This document shows, piece by piece, positions 34,357 through 43,363 of a stretch of DNA of 64,000 nucleotides. Below the pieces are notes generated by a model. The model was not told the DNA's origin and did no database searches. It worked only from the letters and a program-made list of their open reading frames with translations. Numbering within the stretch: position 1 is the first letter of the stretch; every line of letters begins with the position of its first letter. A program made the position numbers and the translations under genes. The stretch comes from Acidimicrobiia bacterium (GTDB lineage: Bacteria; Actinomycetota; Acidimicrobiia; Spongiisociales; ZC4RG35): contig JAICRU010000001.1 in assembly GCA_025937235.1 (NCBI GenBank), forward strand, positions 7,516-71,515. Direction: 5' to 3'.

Positions 34357-34383
34357 GACGAGTCGGCAGCGTTCATTGTGACA
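34357..34383 (-). promoter_or_regulatory. ECF41-type promoter TGTCACA-N16-CGTC facing the sigma factor gene
   Basis: Minus strand reads TGTCACA (34383..34377), 16-nt spacer, CGTC (34360..34357). The in-frame ATG at 34346 follows 10 nt later. Confidence 0.6.
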
Positions 34384-34395
34384 CCGATCGGGCGT

Positions 34396-34422
34396 TGTCA
34401 CAGGGGTGGGTGGCATCTCGTC
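34396..34422 (+). promoter_or_regulatory. ECF41-type promoter TGTCACA-N16-CGTC facing the epimerase gene
   Basis: TGTCACA (34396..34402), 16-nt spacer ggggtgggtggcatct, CGTC (34419..34422). It lies 30 nt upstream of ATG 34453. Confidence 0.7.
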
Positions 34423-34452
34423 TTGGGTAGCGGCAAGAAGAAAGGAGATGAC

Positions 34453-35391
34453 ATGAGAGTCTTTCTCGCGGGTGCCACCGGAGCGATCGGGCAACGTCTG
34501 GTGCCGCTGCTGATCGATGCGGGTCATGAGGTGGTGGGAACCACCCGCACTCCGACGAAGGCAGACGGGCTGCGATTGGCCGGGGCTTCGCCCGTCGTCC
34601 TCGACGGAAGGGATGAGGAGGCGGTGAGACGGGCGGTCCTCGAAGCAGGGCCGGACGTCGTGGTCCACCAGATGACCTCACTGAGCGGCAACCTCGACAT
34701 GAGGCACTTCGCCGACAGCTTCGCCGATACCAACCGGCTCAGGACCGAGACCACCGATCATCTGCTGCAGGCGGCGCTCGAGGCTGGAGCCAGGCGTTTC
34801 GTCGCCCAGAGCTTTGCCGGCTGGCCCAACGAGCAACGTGGTGGGCCGATCAAGACCGAGGAGGATCCGCTGAACACGACGCCTCCGCCGGAGGTGAAGG
34901 AGACTCTCGACGCCATCCTCTATCTCGAGGCGGTGACTACCGGCACGCCGGGGATCGACGGTCTGGCCCTTCGCTACGGCGGTTTCTACGGGCCGGGCCA
35001 AGCCCTGGGCAAGGGCGGGGCGATGTTCGACGGGGTGTCTGCGCGTCGAGTCCCGATAGTGGGCCGGGGGACCGGCATTTGGTCGTTCGTCCATATCGAC
35101 GATGCCGCAATGGCGACTGCGCTGGCCGTCGACCGGGGGGCGCCCGGCGTCTACAACGTGGTCGATGATGAGCCGGCGCCGGTGTCCGAGTGGCTCCCTT
35201 ATCTGGCCGATGTGCTCGGCGCCAAGCCACCGCGAAGGGTCCCGGTCTGGCTTGCTCGGATGTTGGTCGGCGAGCCCCTGGTTTCGATGATGACCAGGAT
35301 CCGCGGCTCCTCCAACGCCAAGGCAAAGCGCGAGTTGGGCTGGATGCCGGAATATCCGTCCTGGCGAGAGGGATTCAGGGACGGGCTCTGA
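34453..35391 (+). CDS. NAD(P)-dependent epimerase/dehydratase-family (extended SDR) protein
   Basis: MRVFLAGATGAIGQRLVPLL Rossmann motif. AAGGAG SD upstream of ATG 34453; the longest ORF starts at 34378. Confidence 0.8.
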   Translation: MRVFLAGATGAIGQRLVPLLIDAGHEVVGTTRTPTKADGLRLAGASPVVLDGRDEEAVRRAVLEAGPDVVVHQMTSLSGNLDMRHFADSFADTNRLRTETTDHLLQAALEAGARRFVAQSFAGWPNEQRGGPIKTEEDPLNTTPPPEVKETLDAILYLEAVTTGTPGIDGLALRYGGFYGPGQALGKGGAMFDGVSARRVPIVGRGTGIWSFVHIDDAAMATALAVDRGAPGVYNVVDDEPAPVSEWLPYLADVLGAKPPRRVPVWLARMLVGEPLVSMMTRIRGSSNAKAKRELGWMPEYPSWREGFRDGL

Positions 35392-36423: not shown

Positions 36424-39400
36424 TCAGCTACAGCCCGTGGTGTCCCCGCAGGTGAGGCAGACATAGCACGAGCCGTTGCGGATGGTCATGTGGCCGCAGT
36501 TGGAGCACACCGGAGCGTCACCCATGTTCTCCCGCAGGGCCGAGTCGACCATGGCTGCCGACCCCGCCAGCACCGTGGCCTTCTCCTCGACCTGGATGGC
36601 AACGGCTTGGCCTGGATCGCTCGAGGGGGCATCCACGAATGCCGCAGCAACCCTCACCGCCTCCACGTCGGACTCGGCGGCGGCATCGGTGAGGTCGAGC
36701 TGGATGCCGGCGTCCACGGCCATGCCCGAGGGCGGCTCAGGGAGCTGCAGGTCGCGGTCCGGCGGCACCTGGGCGAGCTCGTCACGCTCCAGGTACTCCA
36801 CGCCGAGGGCCCGGAACACGTAGTCCACGATGGAGTTGGCCATCTTGATGTTGGGGTGGCCTTCCACCATGCCCCGTGGCTCGAAGGTCTGGAAGGTGAA
36901 AGTATCCACGAACTCCTCCAGCGGCACCCCGTATTGGAGACCCTTGGACACGGCGATGGCGAAGCAGGAGAGAATTCCCTTGAGGGTCGCCCCCTCCTTG
37001 GCCAGGTCGATGAAGATCTCACCAAGGGTCCCGTCGTCGTACTCGCCGGTACGGAGGAACACCTTGTGCCCGCCGATCCTCGCCTCCTGGTTGTACCCGT
37101 TGCGACGGGCGGGGAGCAGGAACCGCGGTGGTTTCATCCCCTGGTGGTAGGCCTGCGTCGGCGAGATCCCCGCGGGGAGGTTGCCCCAGTGGATCGCCTT
37201 CTCCGCCTCCAACGCGGCGGTGATCGCGGGCGCCTCGTCCTCATGGTCATCACCCTCGTCGGAGGTGGAATTGAGTGGCTGAGCCGCCTTCGACCCGTCC
37301 CGGTAGAGGGCCATCGCCTTGAGACCCCACTCCCACGACATCCGGTAGGACTCTTCGATGTCCTCCACCGTGATCTCATGGGGCATGTTGATCGTCTTGC
37401 TGATCGCCCCGGAGATGAATGGCTGCGCCGCCGCCATCATCTTGATGTGGCCGTAGTGGTGGATGAACCGCTCGCCGATCTTGCCGTTCTTGTTGGCCGT
37501 GTCGAAGACGGGGAGATGCTCATCCAAGAGGTGCGGGGCACCCTCGATGGTTTGCCGGCCGCAGATGTGATCGTTGGCCTCGTTGATCTCCTTCGAGGCG
37601 AACCCGAGCGCCTTGAGCAGGTTGAAGTCCCACCCGGTGTACTCGTCGACGCCAAAGCCGAGCCGTTGCAGGGTCTCCTCTCCGAAGGTGAACACGTTGA
37701 ATGCGTGCTTCAGCTCGAACACCGAGGGCAGCGTCTTGTCCAGCTTGGCCAGGTCTTCGTCGTCGAAGCCCTTGGCGGTGAGAGTCTCACGGTTGATGTG
37801 CGGCGCCCCGTCGATGGAGCTGGTGCCGACGATGTACTCGACGACATCCTTGATCTGGCTCTCGTCATAGCCCAGATTCCGCAACGCCGGGGCCACCGAC
37901 TGGTTGGCGATCTTGAAGTAGCCGCCACCGGCCAGCTTCTTGAACTTGACCAGGGCGAAGTCGGGCTCGACCCCGGTGGTGTCACAGTCCATCAAGAGGC
38001 CAATAGTTCCTGTTGGCGCGATCACACTGGATTGAGCGTTGCGATAGCCGTGCTGCTCACCCTGTTCGAGGGCGAGGTCCCACGATGTGCGGGCCGCGGC
38101 GAGGAAGTCGGCAGGGCACAGATCGGGATCGATAGCCATGACCTTGTGGCTGACCCCTTCGTAGTCGTTGTCGCCATAGGCGGCGCGGCGATGATTCCTG
38201 ATCACACGAAGCATCGCTTCTCGGTTCTCGGAGTAACGGGGGAAGGGCCCAACCACACCGGCCATCTCAGCCGAGGTGGCGTAGGAATATCCGGTGAGGA
38301 TGGCGGTCATCGCCCCACTGATGGCCCGGCCCTCGTCGGAGTCGTAGGCAATGCCTTGACGCATCAGCAGAGACCCGAGGTTGGCGTAGCCGAGACCGAG
38401 GGTCCGGTAGTCGTACGAGCCCTGGGCGATCTCCGGAGAGGGGAAATGAGCCATCGCCACCGAGATCTCCAACACGATGGTCCAGAGACGAACCGCGTGC
38501 TGGTACCCCGCGATGTCGAAGACACCGGTCTCGTCGTCGTAGAACCTGACAAGGTTGATCGAGGCCAGGTTGCACGCGGTGTCGTCGAGAAACATGTACT
38601 CACTGCAATTACTGGTAAGAATTCCCAGGGTGAGGTAGGAGTGGTTCTTGGGCTCGGTCAGGTTGTAGGTGGTTTCCCACCCGTCCTCACTTCGATCGTT
38701 GAGACGGACCCAGTGTCGAGTCCGGTACCTGGTCTTCTCGACAAGGACTTGGTGAAGGATGTCGTTCTTGATCGACAGCTCGAAACCGACAGACCCGAAG
38801 AGCCTTTCGACGTCCGACCCCATGATTCGCAAATCGTTGATCTCCGATCGGCCTCGGTAGCCCCGTGTCTCTCCGCCTTTGGTCGTGTATTCGAAAGTCG
38901 AGGCCTCGTGGCGCCGCGACGAGTAGATCGACGCGTGGATGCCGAAAGTGTCGAGTAGTTGCTGAACATCTCGGAGCAGCTCCTTCGAATCGCTGGCCAG
39001 CCCCACATACGTGGTCGTGTTGCCGTAGCGAACGCAACCGTCGGCGTCGTAGAGACCGCGGAGGAAGGCGGCGACGATCGGCTTGGGCGCCTCGAAGATC
39101 GACCACGGCACCCGCTTCTGGCCGGCCTTGGCCTGAGACACACCGAGCGCCTTCAGAAACCCGCTGAAGGCGGCTCGGCTGATGCGCAACTGGTAAGTGC
39201 CATTGCCCATGGCTACGGGCTTGGACGCAAAACCCCCGTTGATTTCTGCGAGCAACTCCCGATGCAGGATCATCGCGGTGTGCTGCTCTTCCTCCGAGCC
39301 GTACACGGTGACGACCGTGTCGTCGGTCATGCTGCCGTCGCCGACTAGCCAGCCCAAATAGTGGGCCATCTCCTCGGTCCACTTCTCGGGGAGTTTGACC

Positions 39401-40995
39401 TCATACCTGCGGCTCGACTTCCGCAGCATGTAACTGTCTGTGTTGGTCGACACCGGCATTGCCCACGAGGCCATGCCGAAATCGATCTCCTGGTCGAGAA
39501 GACGGATCTGGTCGGCCTCGCCGAGCTCGTCGGCGCGGACCCATCCCCGGTTTGCGGTCCAGAGCCGGTGGTTGGGAGTACAGCGAAGGACCCGACCGTC
39601 GGAGAACTCGAGACGGAGGATCTGGTTGGTGCCGGTGACCATGACCTGGCTGGGGGTGCTCAGGTCGATGGTCTCAGTGGGGTGGTCCGGGTTGGTGGCG
39701 TCATGCGTGTACACCTGGAACGACTCACCCTCGGCGACCCTCGTCACCAGCGACTTGAACGGGATCAGACCTCTATCCGTCGCCACTCGCATCTCGCCGG
39801 TGAAGCAGGGGTTGGAGCCGCGGATGCGTCCCCCCGCCGGGCTGGTGTGCCACTCGTTGACGGTGGTGTCGAACTGCAGACCCGGATCGGCGCAGGCCCA
39901 CGCCGCTTCGGCGATTTGGTTCCACAGGTCACGGGCTTTCACCGTCTTCCGTATGGAGCCGTCGGTGCGATTCTTCAACTCCCAGTCGTCGTCGTCGATG
40001 ACCGCCCTGATGAAGTCGTTGCTGACGCGTACCGAATTGTTCGAGTTCTGGCCGGACACGGTGGCGTAGGCATCGCCGTTGAAGTCGGAGGGCAGACCGC
40101 CATGGTTGATCAGGACCCGGGCTTTGTCCTCCTCGACCTTCTTCCAGTCGATGAACTTCTCGATGTCGGGATGGTCGACGTCGAGAATGACCATCTTGGC
40201 GGCCCGGCGGGTCGTGCCTCCGCTCTTAATCGCACCAGCGGCGCGGTCGCCGATCTTGAGAAAGGACATCACACCCGAGGACTTGCCGCCACCGGAGAGC
40301 CGCTCGTTCTCACCGCGGATATGGCTGAAGTTGGACCCGGCCCCGGAGCCGAATTTGAAGATGCGAGCCTCCCGGACCCAGAGATCCATGATGCCGCCCG
40401 GGTTCACCAGATCGTCCTTCACACCGAGGATGAAACAGGCGTGCGGGGCCGGCCGGCTGTAGGAGTCGGGGGAGGCCTCGAGCCGACCGTCGGTCCCGTC
40501 TACGAACCAGAAGCCCTGGGCGGGTCCGGTCAGCCCGTAGGCCCAGTTGAGGCCGGTGTTGAACCACTGCGGCGAGTTGGGGGCGGCCATCTGATTGGCG
40601 AGCATGTACTTGAGTTCGTCCTCGAAGGCATCGGCGTCGTCGGTCGTGGCGAAGTAACCCTCCTTCTCCCCCCAATGCCGCCAGGTGCCGGCCAGGCGGT
40701 CGAAGACCTGTCGTGCCGAGCGCTCCGGCCCGAGCACCGGCTCACCGTCATCACCCACCACCTGGTTGCCCTCGTCGTCGATCTGGGGCACACCGGCCTT
40801 GCGGAAGTACTTCGAGACCATGATGTCGGAGGCGACCTGCGACCACCCTGCAGGGATCTCGGCATCGGTCATCTCGAAGACGATGGACCCGTCGGGATTG
40901 TTGATCCGTGAGTCGCGTCGCGACCACTCGATCCGGTCGTACGCGTCCTTGCCGGCCTCGGTGAAGCGACGGGTGATCCGCAGGCCTTTGCTCAT
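36424..40995 (-). CDS. nrdJ: Adenosylcobalamin-dependent (class II) ribonucleotide reductase, intein-containing precursor
   Basis: Typical long NrdJ: ...ACFILGV..., ...GSGAGSNFSHIRGE..., SNP|C-SEYMFLDDTACNLASINL, ...ISKTINMP..., and a C-terminal Cys cluster CSNCGHMTIRNGSCYVCLTCG. Start at ATG 40995, 8 nt after GAGGAGG. 1523 aa including a 400-aa insert. Confidence 0.95.
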   Translation of the reverse strand: MSKGLRITRRFTEAGKDAYDRIEWSRRDSRINNPDGSIVFEMTDAEIPAGWSQVASDIMVSKYFRKAGVPQIDDEGNQVVGDDGEPVLGPERSARQVFDRLAGTWRHWGEKEGYFATTDDADAFEDELKYMLANQMAAPNSPQWFNTGLNWAYGLTGPAQGFWFVDGTDGRLEASPDSYSRPAPHACFILGVKDDLVNPGGIMDLWVREARIFKFGSGAGSNFSHIRGENERLSGGGKSSGVMSFLKIGDRAAGAIKSGGTTRRAAKMVILDVDHPDIEKFIDWKKVEEDKARVLINHGGLPSDFNGDAYATVSGQNSNNSVRVSNDFIRAVIDDDDWELKNRTDGSIRKTVKARDLWNQIAEAAWACADPGLQFDTTVNEWHTSPAGGRIRGSNPCFTGEMRVATDRGLIPFKSLVTRVAEGESFQVYTHDATNPDHPTETIDLSTPSQVMVTGTNQILRLEFSDGRVLRCTPNHRLWTANRGWVRADELGEADQIRLLDQEIDFGMASWAMPVSTNTDSYMLRKSSRRYEVKLPEKWTEEMAHYLGWLVGDGSMTDDTVVTVYGSEEEQHTAMILHRELLAEINGGFASKPVAMGNGTYQLRISRAAFSGFLKALGVSQAKAGQKRVPWSIFEAPKPIVAAFLRGLYDADGCVRYGNTTTYVGLASDSKELLRDVQQLLDTFGIHASIYSSRRHEASTFEYTTKGGETRGYRGRSEINDLRIMGSDVERLFGSVGFELSIKNDILHQVLVEKTRYRTRHWVRLNDRSEDGWETTYNLTEPKNHSYLTLGILTSNCSEYMFLDDTACNLASINLVRFYDDETGVFDIAGYQHAVRLWTIVLEISVAMAHFPSPEIAQGSYDYRTLGLGYANLGSLLMRQGIAYDSDEGRAISGAMTAILTGYSYATSAEMAGVVGPFPRYSENREAMLRVIRNHRRAAYGDNDYEGVSHKVMAIDPDLCPADFLAAARTSWDLALEQGEQHGYRNAQSSVIAPTGTIGLLMDCDTTGVEPDFALVKFKKLAGGGYFKIANQSVAPALRNLGYDESQIKDVVEYIVGTSSIDGAPHINRETLTAKGFDDEDLAKLDKTLPSVFELKHAFNVFTFGEETLQRLGFGVDEYTGWDFNLLKALGFASKEINEANDHICGRQTIEGAPHLLDEHLPVFDTANKNGKIGERFIHHYGHIKMMAAAQPFISGAISKTINMPHEITVEDIEESYRMSWEWGLKAMALYRDGSKAAQPLNSTSDEGDDHEDEAPAITAALEAEKAIHWGNLPAGISPTQAYHQGMKPPRFLLPARRNGYNQEARIGGHKVFLRTGEYDDGTLGEIFIDLAKEGATLKGILSCFAIAVSKGLQYGVPLEEFVDTFTFQTFEPRGMVEGHPNIKMANSIVDYVFRALGVEYLERDELAQVPPDRDLQLPEPPSGMAVDAGIQLDLTDAAAESDVEAVRVAAAFVDAPSSDPGQAVAIQVEEKATVLAGSAAMVDSALRENMGDAPVCSNCGHMTIRNGSCYVCLTCGDTTGCS
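38608..39807 (-). mobile_element. Intein (400 aa) with LAGLIDADG homing-endonuclease domain inside nrdJ
   Basis: The insert starts with Cys (CFTGEMRV) and has block B CTPNH and two dodecapeptide motifs, LGWLVGDGS and FLRGLYDADG. It ends ...GILTSN and is followed by Cys+1 of CSEY. Removal restores the conserved SNPCSEY. Confidence 0.9.
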
Positions 40996-41088
40996 GAAAC
41001 GTGCCTCCTCGCACTGGGGACGCCTCGCCGGGCAGATGGCGGGGCGGTGTCCAAACCCTCTCGGGTGTTCATCTGATTTGCCAACCGA

Positions 41089-41135
41089 CCACAAGATGTT
41101 GTGGTTGAAGGGGAAGCGACCACGACATCTGGTAT
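41089..41135 (-). promoter_or_regulatory. Tandem NrdR boxes upstream of nrdJ
   Basis: CCACAAGATGTTGTGG (41089..41104; 14 of 16 positions symmetric) and CCACGACATCTGGTAT (41120..41135). Centres are 31 bp apart, between the predicted -10 and the nrdJ start. Confidence 0.7.
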
Positions 41136-41435: not shown

Positions 41436-42212
41436 ATGCAATTTGCCTCGTTCGACGTGTCCGCGCCGGATCCGGTGATCGCCACCGCGGTCCACAACGG
41501 CCATGAGCTGCGCCCGGAACTGGCCATGGTGTCCGCATTGGACGGGCACAGCCGCCTTCGTGAGGAAGACCCTCACACCGGGATTGTTGCTCATCGATTC
41601 GCCAACAATGTGGTGGTCCATCGTTCCCGATTCGAGATCGACCTCAACCGGGAGCGGGACCATGCGGTCTACCTCACTGCCGACGATGCCTGGGGGTTGG
41701 AGGTGTGGCGGAGGCCACTCGAAAAGGAGGAGATTGCCGGGTCCCTGCACCTGTACGACCGGTTCTACGCCGATCTGGCGGCAGCCCTCGACGGATTGGT
41801 TGCCGACAACGGTGGATTCGTCTTGTACGACATCCACTCCTACAACCACGTCCGTTCCGGGCCAGGCGGCGAGCCTGACCCGGCCGAGGAGAGCCCGATA
41901 GTCAACCTCGGCACCGGCTCGCTCCCGGAGCGATGGAAGGCCGTCGCCGACGCATTCGTGGAAAGCGCCCGGGAGTCGACCCTCGACGGGACCAGGCTCG
42001 ACGTCAGGGAGAATGTCCGCTTCGAAGGCCGGCAGGTGGCGGCCTGGGTCCACGGGAGATATGGCGACGTCGGCTGCGCACTCGCCATCGAGTTGAAGAA
42101 GGTCTTCATGGACGAATGGTCGGGTGAAGTCGACCTCCAGCGGCTGGAGAAGCTGGGGGCCGCCCTTCTCGACACCGCCGAACCGGTCCGGCGAGCCTGG
42201 AGGGGCTCGTGA
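41436..42212 (+). CDS. N-formylglutamate amidohydrolase (FGase) family protein
   Basis: 258 aa: ...TAVHNGHELRPE..., ...EEDPHTG..., ...HRSRFEIDLNRE... and ...YDIHSYNH... fit the FGase/HutG-like family pattern. Confidence 0.7.
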   Translation: MQFASFDVSAPDPVIATAVHNGHELRPELAMVSALDGHSRLREEDPHTGIVAHRFANNVVVHRSRFEIDLNRERDHAVYLTADDAWGLEVWRRPLEKEEIAGSLHLYDRFYADLAAALDGLVADNGGFVLYDIHSYNHVRSGPGGEPDPAEESPIVNLGTGSLPERWKAVADAFVESARESTLDGTRLDVRENVRFEGRQVAAWVHGRYGDVGCALAIELKKVFMDEWSGEVDLQRLEKLGAALLDTAEPVRRAWRGS

Positions 42213-43363
42213 GCGTCAGTGATGTCGATCTGGCCCTGGATCGCCGCCTCAGCGAGGTATCCGGCCTGCTTCCGATGCTCCAACTACTGACACCCATCAA
42301 TGTCACCGAGCAGAAGAAGGCCTTCTTCGAGCGAAAGGTCGCCGAGCCCGAGTTCGCCTATCGCGACCTCCCCGACCTCGCCCCCCTCGGAGATGAATTG
42401 GCGGCGATCAACCCCGAGGAAGCCACCGACCCGGTCCTGGTGCACATGATCAGGGGCATGCACCGTGAGCTGGAGCGGCGGATCGAGCTGCTCGCGGCCC
42501 GGAACACGGACCGGTTCCTCCTCGCCGCCGTCGAGAAATGGGGACATGTCGATCAGACCCTCATCGAACTGGCCGAACGGGTCCTCGAGGATGTCCCCCC
42601 CGGGCCCCCTGCCGACGAATATGTCCATGCCCACGAGCTGGCCGGCATGGCCACCATCGAGCTGGATCACTACCGAAAGGCCTTCCCGGAGCTGGCCACC
42701 CTGGTCCATGTGAGCGAGCTGGTCGCCGGGGTGATGGTGGAGAACGGAGATCTCTTCATAAGCACCGAGGCCTCCATCTCCGCGGATCGGGTCCCGCAGT
42801 TGCTCCACCATGAGATCGGGGTCCACGTCCTCACGTTCGTGAACGGCAGCGTCCAGCCGATCCGTATGCTCTCGCTCGGCCTGGACGGATACGAGGAGAC
42901 TCAGGAGGCGCTGGGAGTACTCGCCGAGTATCTCGGTGGTGGTCTTCGACCCAAGCGACTGAGGGCCTTCGCCCAGCGGGTGATGGCCGCCCAATCGGTG
43001 AGCCGCCGCGATAGCTTCGCCCAGACCTTCGAGCTCATGATGTCTCTCGGCGCCGGCCGAAACCGAGCTTTCAACACCACCATGCGGGCTCACCGATCTG
43101 GAGGCATGACCAAGGACGCCCTATATCTCGGCGGGACCACCCGGCTGCTCGCCTTCATCCGGGAGGGTGGCGACCTCGATTCTCTGCTCGTTGGGAAGAT
43201 CTCATTGGCCGACCAGCCTTTGGTCCTTGACCTCCTCGAACGCAATGTCCTCGTCGAGCCCCCGCTCCGTCCCCGCTTCCTCGACTCGGATCAGGCTTCC
43301 GAGCGGCTGGCGAGGATCGAAGATGGCGCCGACGTCCTCGAACTGGTAGGCATTGCGGCATGA
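42209..43363 (+). CDS. DUF1704 / MATCAP-like putative metallocarboxypeptidase ('QEGLA motif' family)
   Basis: HExxH zinc motif in LLHHEIGVHVLT and a QEGLA-like segment GYEETQEALGVLAEY. GTGA overlap with the FGase gene. Confidence 0.7.
   Translation: MSVSDVDLALDRRLSEVSGLLPMLQLLTPINVTEQKKAFFERKVAEPEFAYRDLPDLAPLGDELAAINPEEATDPVLVHMIRGMHRELERRIELLAARNTDRFLLAAVEKWGHVDQTLIELAERVLEDVPPGPPADEYVHAHELAGMATIELDHYRKAFPELATLVHVSELVAGVMVENGDLFISTEASISADRVPQLLHHEIGVHVLTFVNGSVQPIRMLSLGLDGYEETQEALGVLAEYLGGGLRPKRLRAFAQRVMAAQSVSRRDSFAQTFELMMSLGAGRNRAFNTTMRAHRSGGMTKDALYLGGTTRLLAFIREGGDLDSLLVGKISLADQPLVLDLLERNVLVEPPLRPRFLDSDQASERLARIEDGADVLELVGIAA

Follow-up and report, generated by a model that had tools for sequence, protein, structure and literature searches.

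A probable class-1 intein with a nested LAGLIDADG endonuclease beside the radical cysteine of a class II ribonucleotide reductase in an Acidimicrobiia bacterium

The nrdJ gene and its insert

The window examined here is a 64,000-nucleotide stretch of DNA from an Acidimicrobiia bacterium (GenBank assembly GCA_025937235.1, contig JAICRU010000001.1, positions 7,516 to 71,515 of the forward strand), numbered from its first letter. Its minus strand carries nrdJ, the gene of a class II, B12-dependent ribonucleotide reductase (RNR), and within this gene lies an in-frame insert of 400 codons that is very probably an intein of class 1 (the canonical type) and harbors a nested LAGLIDADG homing endonuclease; the insert lies directly N-terminal to the thiyl-radical Cys of the enzyme. 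A preliminary description of the window, made from the sequence alone, had placed an insert of 400 amino acids at 38608..39807 without stating the strand; these coordinates were right, the gene being on the minus strand, and all of the motifs that it had named (Cys1, CTPNH, LGWLVGDGS, FLRGLYDADG, the terminal Asn and the penultimate Ser) were found in place. The features of the gene are listed below in the order of translation.

36424..40995, minus strand: nrdJ precursor open reading frame (class II, B12-dependent RNR), 1523 codons plus stop, beginning MSKGLRITRRF
39808..40995, minus strand: N-extein, 396 codons, ending ...GGRIRGSNP; aligns to 7B9P and to profile NF005736 up to about position 476
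38608..39807, minus strand: probable intein, 400 codons (codons 397-796 of the reading frame), Cys1 to Ser399-Asn400
39493..39807, minus strand: N-terminal splicing (Hint) region, intein residues 1-105, with block A (Cys1, CFTGE) and block B
39568..39582, minus strand: block B, CTPNH (T77-P-N-H80; Thr77 and His80 invariant)
38773..39390, minus strand: predicted LAGLIDADG homing-endonuclease domain, approximately intein residues 140-345
39331..39357, minus strand: LAGLIDADG motif 1, LGWLVGDGS, with Asp157
39037..39066, minus strand: LAGLIDADG motif 2, FLRGLYDADG, with Asp256
38608..38673, minus strand: C-terminal splicing region, blocks F and G, TTYNLTEPKNHSYLTLGILTSN, with Asn382 (F:4), His389 (block F), Ser399 and Asn400
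36424..38607, minus strand: C-extein, 727 codons plus stop; the codon of the +1 Cys is 38605..38607

The register of blocks F and G was set by ungapped comparison with the blocks of the Ssp DnaB mini-intein.

The intein translation is exactly 400 residues long (CFTGEMRVATDRG...NHSYLTLGILTSN) and follows the N-side flank ...GGRIRGSNP. Upon deletion of residues 397-796, NrdJ became collinear, and gap-free across the junction, with the solved intein-free NrdJ 7B9P, with which it shared an identical stretch of 22 residues. A search performed with a 262-residue query that spanned the spliced junction matched 4732 proteins, and the motif [ST]NPC[SA]EY was uninterrupted in 119 of the best 120 fragments. 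The 7B9P alignment and these fragments bear out the earlier claim that removal of 400 codons restores SNPCSEY. Against the intein-free profile NF005736, the N-side piece ended at position 476 and the C-side piece began at position 472; because the two alignments meet at 472-476, host positions are neither lost nor duplicated. The matches listed in both homologue searches were shorter than about 700 residues and many were partial or frameshifted; genomic loci were used instead for full-length comparisons.

The insert matched the intein N-terminal model TIGR01445 (intein_Nterm) over residues 1-84 with 30.7-32 bits (cut-off 24.5) and Pfam LAGLIDADG_3 (PF14528) with 70.8 bits (cut-off 22.5, E = 1.2e-19). 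A sequence search of the PDB returned the Thermococcales V-ATPase inteins 7QSS and 7QSU (approximately 1e-9), the NrdJ-1 intein 8UBS and DnaB inteins. An AlphaFold model of the intein, built on an alignment of 43 sequences, reached a predicted local distance difference test score (pLDDT) of 93.1 and a predicted template-modelling (TM) score (pTM) of 0.92, and Foldseek matched this model to the TliVMA intein (7e-22), PI-PfuI (5e-16), PI-TkoII (1e-14) and PI-SceI (approximately 1e-11). Further matches, to the endonuclease I-DmoI (target-normalised TM score approximately 0.7) and to the Ssp DnaB mini-intein, concerned two separate domains. The insert is accordingly predicted with high confidence to consist of a Hint domain and a LAGLIDADG domain.

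Identification of the insert as an intein follows from the match to a Hint N-terminal hidden Markov model (HMM), the predicted Hint plus LAGLIDADG fold and the exact restoration of the host protein on deletion. The LAGLIDADG_3, TIGR01445 and Foldseek scores lay far beyond chance, and the assignment of a homing-endonuclease domain in the preliminary description was upheld by the LAGLIDADG_3 match and the conservation of acidic residues. That description had named homologous sequence in intein-free orthologues, or the absence of a Hint HMM match, as grounds for abandoning the intein; intein-free orthologues carried nothing over the 400-residue stretch, and a Hint HMM match exists. The insert has the residues expected of a class-1 intein, namely Cys1, Cys+1, Thr-x-x-His in block B and a C-terminal Asn, and lacks the penultimate His that is common in such elements. 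On its motifs and profile match, the endonuclease appears to belong with the double-motif, intein-nested LAGLIDADG enzymes. A class 2 mechanism was rejected given the presence of Cys1, and assignment to class 3 (Trp-Cys-Thr motif) was rejected given Cys1 and the Asn382, not Cys, at block F:4.

The nrdJ frame was uninterrupted across all 1523 codons, beginning with an ATG at 40995 behind a ribosome-binding site, GAGGAGG, at 41010..41004 (minus strand). Full-length NrdJ matched the NCBIfam models NF005122 (1210.7 bits, cut-off 859) and TIGR02504 (563.4 bits, cut-off 399.95) as well as the Pfam domains Ribonuc_red_2_N, Ribonuc_red_lgC and TSCPD. The N-P-C-S-E of the spliced form and the Cys that follows it aligned with residues 320-324 and 333 of Thermotoga maritima NrdJ (1XJE), which places the +1 Cys opposite residue 322 of that protein; the same Cys aligned with residue 388 of Salmonella NrdE (1PEM). 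Residues 322 and 388 are the thiyl-radical Cys of these enzymes, and residue 333 is one Cys of the redox pair, so that the +1 Cys would be the catalytic Cys, as had been proposed. The HMM matches, the finger loop and the redox Cys together assign the host protein to the class II (adenosylcobalamin-dependent) RNRs.

A Cys-rich tail of NrdJ, CSNCGHMTIRNGSCYVCLTCGDTTGCS, follows the TSCPD domain (36424..36510, minus strand) and resembles the C-terminal zinc-finger or redox tail described in many class II RNRs. A palindrome, CACAACATCTTGTG (41090..41103, minus strand), approximately 95 bp ahead of the start codon of nrdJ resembles the consensus of the NrdR operator box; no nrdR-like reading frame with an N-terminal M-x-C-P-x-C motif was found in the window. 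A scan of the whole window against Rfam gave zero matches, and so neither a cobalamin riboswitch nor another curated RNA was found near nrdJ. The genes that neighbor nrdJ (41436..43363 and 34378..35391, both plus strand) encode proteins of the N-formylglutamate amidohydrolase and MATCAP (tyrosine carboxypeptidase-like) families and an NAD-dependent epimerase.

Relatives at the same site and the C-terminal junction

At least 25 relatives of the intein were found at the same site in Actinomycetota. Among GTDB species representatives, the same-site intein was present at 21 loci and 19 of the relatives were full-length. Most of the 21 loci were from metagenome-assembled genomes (MAGs) of Acidimicrobiia with 63-85% intein identity, while identities for Actinomycetes, Thermoleophilia and Gaiellales were 43-46%. 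Dozens of metagenomic fragments assigned to Dermatophilaceae, Acidothermaceae, Glycomyces and Actinoplanes also carried the intein at this position. The N-terminal junction was ...SNP/CF in all same-site relatives (here and below, a slash marks the junction). Residues invariant in 20 aligned sequences included Cys1, Thr77, His80, Asp157, Lys231, Asp256, Asn382 and His389, together with the LAGLIDADG motif residues G156, D157, G158, A255, D256 and G257; five relatives have Leu or Ser in place of Cys76, beside block B. The terminal Asn was present in 19 of the 20, the exception (L005) ending in His.

The penultimate residue of the window intein is Ser399, before Asn400, and the codons at this junction are ATT CTT ACC AGT AAT. 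At each complete C-terminal junction in the family, the terminal Asn was preceded by Ser, Ala or Arg and in none by His, which indicates that the missing His is a character of the whole clade and not an oddity of the window gene. The His-Asn dipeptide is retained in distant same-site relatives, both in the canonical L027 (VFDITEPVTHSFVANGIVVHN/C, i.e., ...VVHN/CSE) and in P0060 (...SHN/CAE). A penultimate His (block G:6) is common in inteins and not obligatory. Splicing without it is on record (Chen, Benner and Perler 2000 and the structure of the Ssp DnaE intein, both cited in PMC4031507), and cyanobacterial DnaE inteins carry Ser or Ala at the penultimate position (PMC5874633). Since these known exceptions splice, the missing His does not exclude the window element from the inteins. 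The preliminary description was correct as to the penultimate Ser but overstated the case in calling the junction non-canonical, given that the residue is family-wide and splicing without His is documented.

Block F:4 of the window intein is Asn instead of the usual Asp, a substitution that is ordinary in the wider clade. In 37 of 39 more distant relatives from viral contigs, Asn at F:4 was combined with a canonical His-Asn end. The idea that Asn at F:4 and the missing His form a coupled, mechanistically distinct variant was rejected, as the two features are unlinked.

Several loci related to this family departed from the usual arrangement. A contig classed as viral (L026:4001-5197, IMGVR_UViG_3300048592_001209) carries an nrdJ intein of the same family at the same site, 45% identical and ending ...VVRN/CSEY; this contig could represent a phage vector of the intein family or a misclassified host fragment. 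The L005 intein (L005:6001-7197) ends ...ILTSH, not ...SN, a few bases before the contig stops, and another contig of the same MAG (L019:3-521, SMAG_U3905) begins within a 79%-identical intein, which suggests either two strain variants or an assembly break within the intein. In the metagenomic nrdJ P0020, on a 1.13-Mb contig, a deletion reaches from midway through the endonuclease domain as far as the extein (...ELNGGV/NSEYVF...) and takes out the catalytic Cys; the allele is probably a dead one, left when the intein was lost imprecisely, or else it is an artefact of assembly.

Stop-to-stop nrdJ frames of 1687-2660 codons were noted in Acidimicrobiia and Thermoleophilia (L012:2275-10254, L008:4348-10374, L006:3047-8983 and L017:3757-8817). 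Multiple Hint, Intein_splicing and LAGLIDADG matches in these frames point to 2-4 inteins per nrdJ, whereas the nrdJ of the window holds only one.

Free-standing genes of 422-426 codons related to the window intein were also found (L023:5001-6281; L025:5001-6278, from Streptodolium elevatio; L024:5001-6269, from Yinghuangia seranimata). Their products aligned to 92-99% of the window intein at 37-40% identity and kept both LAGLIDADG motifs, while Cys1, Thr-x-x-His of block B and the terminal Asn/Cys were lost. In all three genomes, the gene was just downstream of an intein-free nrdJ (947 amino acids) in an nrdR-nrdJ locus. These genes look like intein-derived endonucleases, free-standing or domesticated beside the presumed target gene, and may be compared with yeast HO.

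Selection, inheritance and alternative readings

Pairwise ratios of nonsynonymous to synonymous substitution rates (dN/dS) between the window intein and nine relatives were 0.09-0.19; within the intein, the N-terminal splicing region gave 0.04-0.16 and the endonuclease domain 0.11-0.21, against 0.08-0.29 for the exteins. All of these ratios are approximate because dS was near saturation (approximately 0.5-2.5). Judged from them, splicing and endonuclease functions are both clearly under constraint, and purifying selection on the intein family is no weaker than that acting on the enzyme.

Distances between inteins were correlated with distances between the corresponding exteins (Mantel r 0.957 for 13 loci and 0.697 within Acidimicrobiia, p = 2e-4), and identities to relatives dropped in parallel from 85 to 44% for the intein and from 87 to 48% for the extein. 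GC content at third codon positions (GC3) was 0.812 for the intein and 0.861 for the exteins (Fisher p = 0.023), a deficit of approximately 5 points, and was lowest (0.73) over the last 55 codons of the intein. The preliminary description had noted AT-rich third positions within the insert. GC3 is indeed lower and the codons that it had named do occur at the C-terminal junction, but the difference is weak: GC3 was equal or lower in 19% of 400-codon blocks of nrdJ and reached 0.70 in extein codons 901-1000. In five relatives, intein GC3 was 4-10 points under that of the flanks, yet it tracked each host (0.71-0.85). Because the GC3 deficit is small, intein GC3 follows the host and intein and extein distances are correlated, the intein appears to be an old, largely ameliorated and largely vertically inherited resident of the nrdJ lineage.

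One locus (L022) had an intein-free nrdJ in the same neighborhood as that of the window (MATCAP, N-formylglutamate amidohydrolase, nrdJ and epimerase genes). The extein of L022 was 87% identical to that of the window, between the values for the intein-bearing loci L001 (90%) and L002 (85%), and the DNA of its intein-less junction was conserved (GGCCGGATCCGGGCATCGAACCCG/TGCAGCGAGTACATGTTCCTCGACGACACC). This presence/absence polymorphism indicates that mobility or loss of the intein does occur.

A pathway for the element can be proposed from the established class-1 intein mechanism, with splicing and cleavage activity inferred from conservation only. After translation, an N-to-S acyl shift would take place at Cys1 and trans-thioesterification would pass the N-extein to the thiol of Cys+1, which is later to serve as the radical Cys. 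Cyclisation of Asn400, without a penultimate His and probably aided by the invariant block F His389, would then free the intein, and an S-to-N shift would rebuild ...SNP-CSEY.... Because the insert interrupts the finger loop, NrdJ would be active only once spliced. The freed intein would cleave nrdJ alleles that lack it, site-specifically at the ...AACCC/TGCAG... junction, and so maintain or spread the element, which in this lineage would be an old resident with mostly vertical inheritance and occasional loss or gain.

Several points weigh against an active class-1 intein with a homing endonuclease. The insert lacks the penultimate His, a usual aid to Asn cyclisation. The match to Pfam Intein_splicing (PF14890) reached 30.7 bits, under the gathering score of 35.8, and no intein C-terminal domain model was among the NCBIfam matches, presumably because the His-Asn dipeptide is missing. 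Splicing and cleavage activity are both read from conservation only, the dN/dS ratios are approximate, and the strong co-divergence of intein and host leaves current endonuclease-driven mobility undemonstrated. A non-splicing insert in a disrupted, non-functional nrdJ would account for the missing His and the sub-threshold Pfam score, and degenerate versions do exist elsewhere (P0020 without the catalytic Cys, L005 ending in Ser-His). Nevertheless, the 1523-codon frame is intact with all nucleophiles, block B and the block F His present, the extein dN/dS of 0.08-0.29 in many insert-bearing species is incompatible with a pseudogene, and the missing His is common to a whole conserved family and to other inteins that splice, all of which makes this explanation extremely improbable. 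The preliminary description had seen in codon usage a fit with horizontal acquisition. A recent acquisition of this kind was weakly suggested by the lower GC3 of the intein and of its last 55 codons, by the similar deficit in five relatives and by the occurrence of a same-family intein (45% identity) on the viral-classed contig L026. A deficit of this size is matched in 19% of equal-sized nrdJ blocks, with one extein stretch at 0.70, intein GC3 tracks each host while intein and extein identities fall in parallel, and the closest intein found is only 85% identical, with nothing that points to a recent donor; a recent transfer is consequently considered very improbable.

The alternatives that accept splicing concern the role of the element. 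An intein that splices while its endonuclease no longer homes, being inactive or serving another role, could persist simply because the host depends on splicing and the element is seldom deleted precisely. The covariation of intein and extein distances (Mantel r 0.96 overall and 0.70 within Acidimicrobiia) and the intein GC3, which follows each host, speak for long vertical residence and against frequent invasion. In contrast, dN/dS of the endonuclease domain (0.11-0.21) is like that of the enzyme, Asp157, Asp256, Lys231 and both motifs are invariant in 20 sequences diverged to 44%, which would not be expected of a decaying enzyme, and the intein-free allele of L022 falls among intein-bearing relatives by extein identity, as a homing cycle predicts. 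Loss of homing is thus regarded as unlikely. Conditional splicing, gated for example by redox state through a disulfide between Cys1 and Cys+1, would make the intein a post-translational switch on deoxynucleoside triphosphate (dNTP) synthesis. Circumstantial points in its favor are that the element lies between Cys1 and the radical Cys at +1, that the intein was kept under purifying selection through long co-divergence and that related nrdJ genes hold 2-4 inteins. However, no specific sequence feature supports such a switch, Cys76 is Leu or Ser in five relatives, and retention is equally explained by a selfish element at a site where imprecise loss is lethal, so that conditional splicing is judged improbable. 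The broader conjecture that the NrdJ inteins of Actinomycetota do not merely ride along as selfish elements but act as a switch (redox, or slowed Asn cyclisation) on RNR activation and dNTP supply is considered slightly more doubtful still. A class-1 intein with a nested homing endonuclease, old and mostly vertically inherited in this lineage, remains the preferred explanation.

Comparison with known inteins and significance

Among class I and II RNRs, inteins are inserted most often at the site N-terminal to the radical Cys (Dassa et al., PMC2677866), and RNR is the second commonest intein host in bacteria, Actinobacteria included (PMC4760082). The intein-containing archaeal NrdJ model NF006207 (PRK08332) aligned in a single stretch over each junction of the window NrdJ, with residues 20-122 of the N-junction piece against profile positions 777-881 and residues 3-193 of the C-junction piece against positions 1150-1337. 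RIR1 inteins such as that of NF006207 share enzyme family, insertion point and Hint plus LAGLIDADG architecture with the window intein, but the sequences are only distantly alike, with resemblance detectable chiefly in the endonuclease and around blocks F and G. Other same-site relatives that are distant from the window intein (L027 and P0060) differ from its actinobacterial family, with His-Asn where the latter has Ser, Ala or Arg before Asn.

The best structural matches were to solved endonuclease inteins, namely PI-PfuI (1DQ3), TliVMA/PhoVMA (7QSS, 7QSU, 7QST), PI-TkoII (2CW7) and PI-SceI (1VDE and others), with Foldseek E values of 7e-22 to approximately 1e-10, probability 1.0 and TM scores up to 0.67. 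These solved inteins have the same two domains and the two LAGLIDADG helices with catalytic Asp, but only 11-19% sequence identity to the window intein, which at 400 residues is more compact than PI-PfuI (454), PI-TkoII (537) or PI-SceI (454). PI-PfuI, the VMA inteins, PI-TkoII and PI-SceI have a canonical His-Asn C-terminus.

For the ...TSN/C junction of the window intein, precedent is provided by the cyanobacterial DnaE split inteins (Ssp, Npu), which splice efficiently although their Asn, followed by Cys+1, is preceded by Ala or Ser. The DnaE inteins differ in host protein, in being naturally split, in having no endonuclease domain and in carrying Asp at block F:4, where the window intein family has Asn. 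The NrdJ-1 split intein (GOS metagenome, 8UBS) is likewise in NrdJ beside the radical Cys and resembles the window intein weakly in the N-terminal splicing region (E = 2.9e-7, residues 62-134); it differs in being split, in having a free-standing endonuclease gene and in its insertion one residue further C-terminal, after the Cys (PMC2677866).

These comparisons indicate that the window intein is an ordinary element at the best-known RNR intein site and that its single deviation is documented variation. It adds one example, with approximately 20 relatives, to this hot spot and leaves current ideas on inteins and RNRs unchallenged. The finding also has value for annotation. A partial protein in the same 90%-identity cluster (HEU4917347.1) is labeled only 'LAGLIDADG family homing endonuclease, partial' in NCBI; the gene in the window is not a stand-alone endonuclease but a complete and probably functional nrdJ that needs protein splicing. 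Finally, the actinobacterial same-site intein clade, being uniformly without the penultimate His, could serve studies of His-independent Asn cyclisation.

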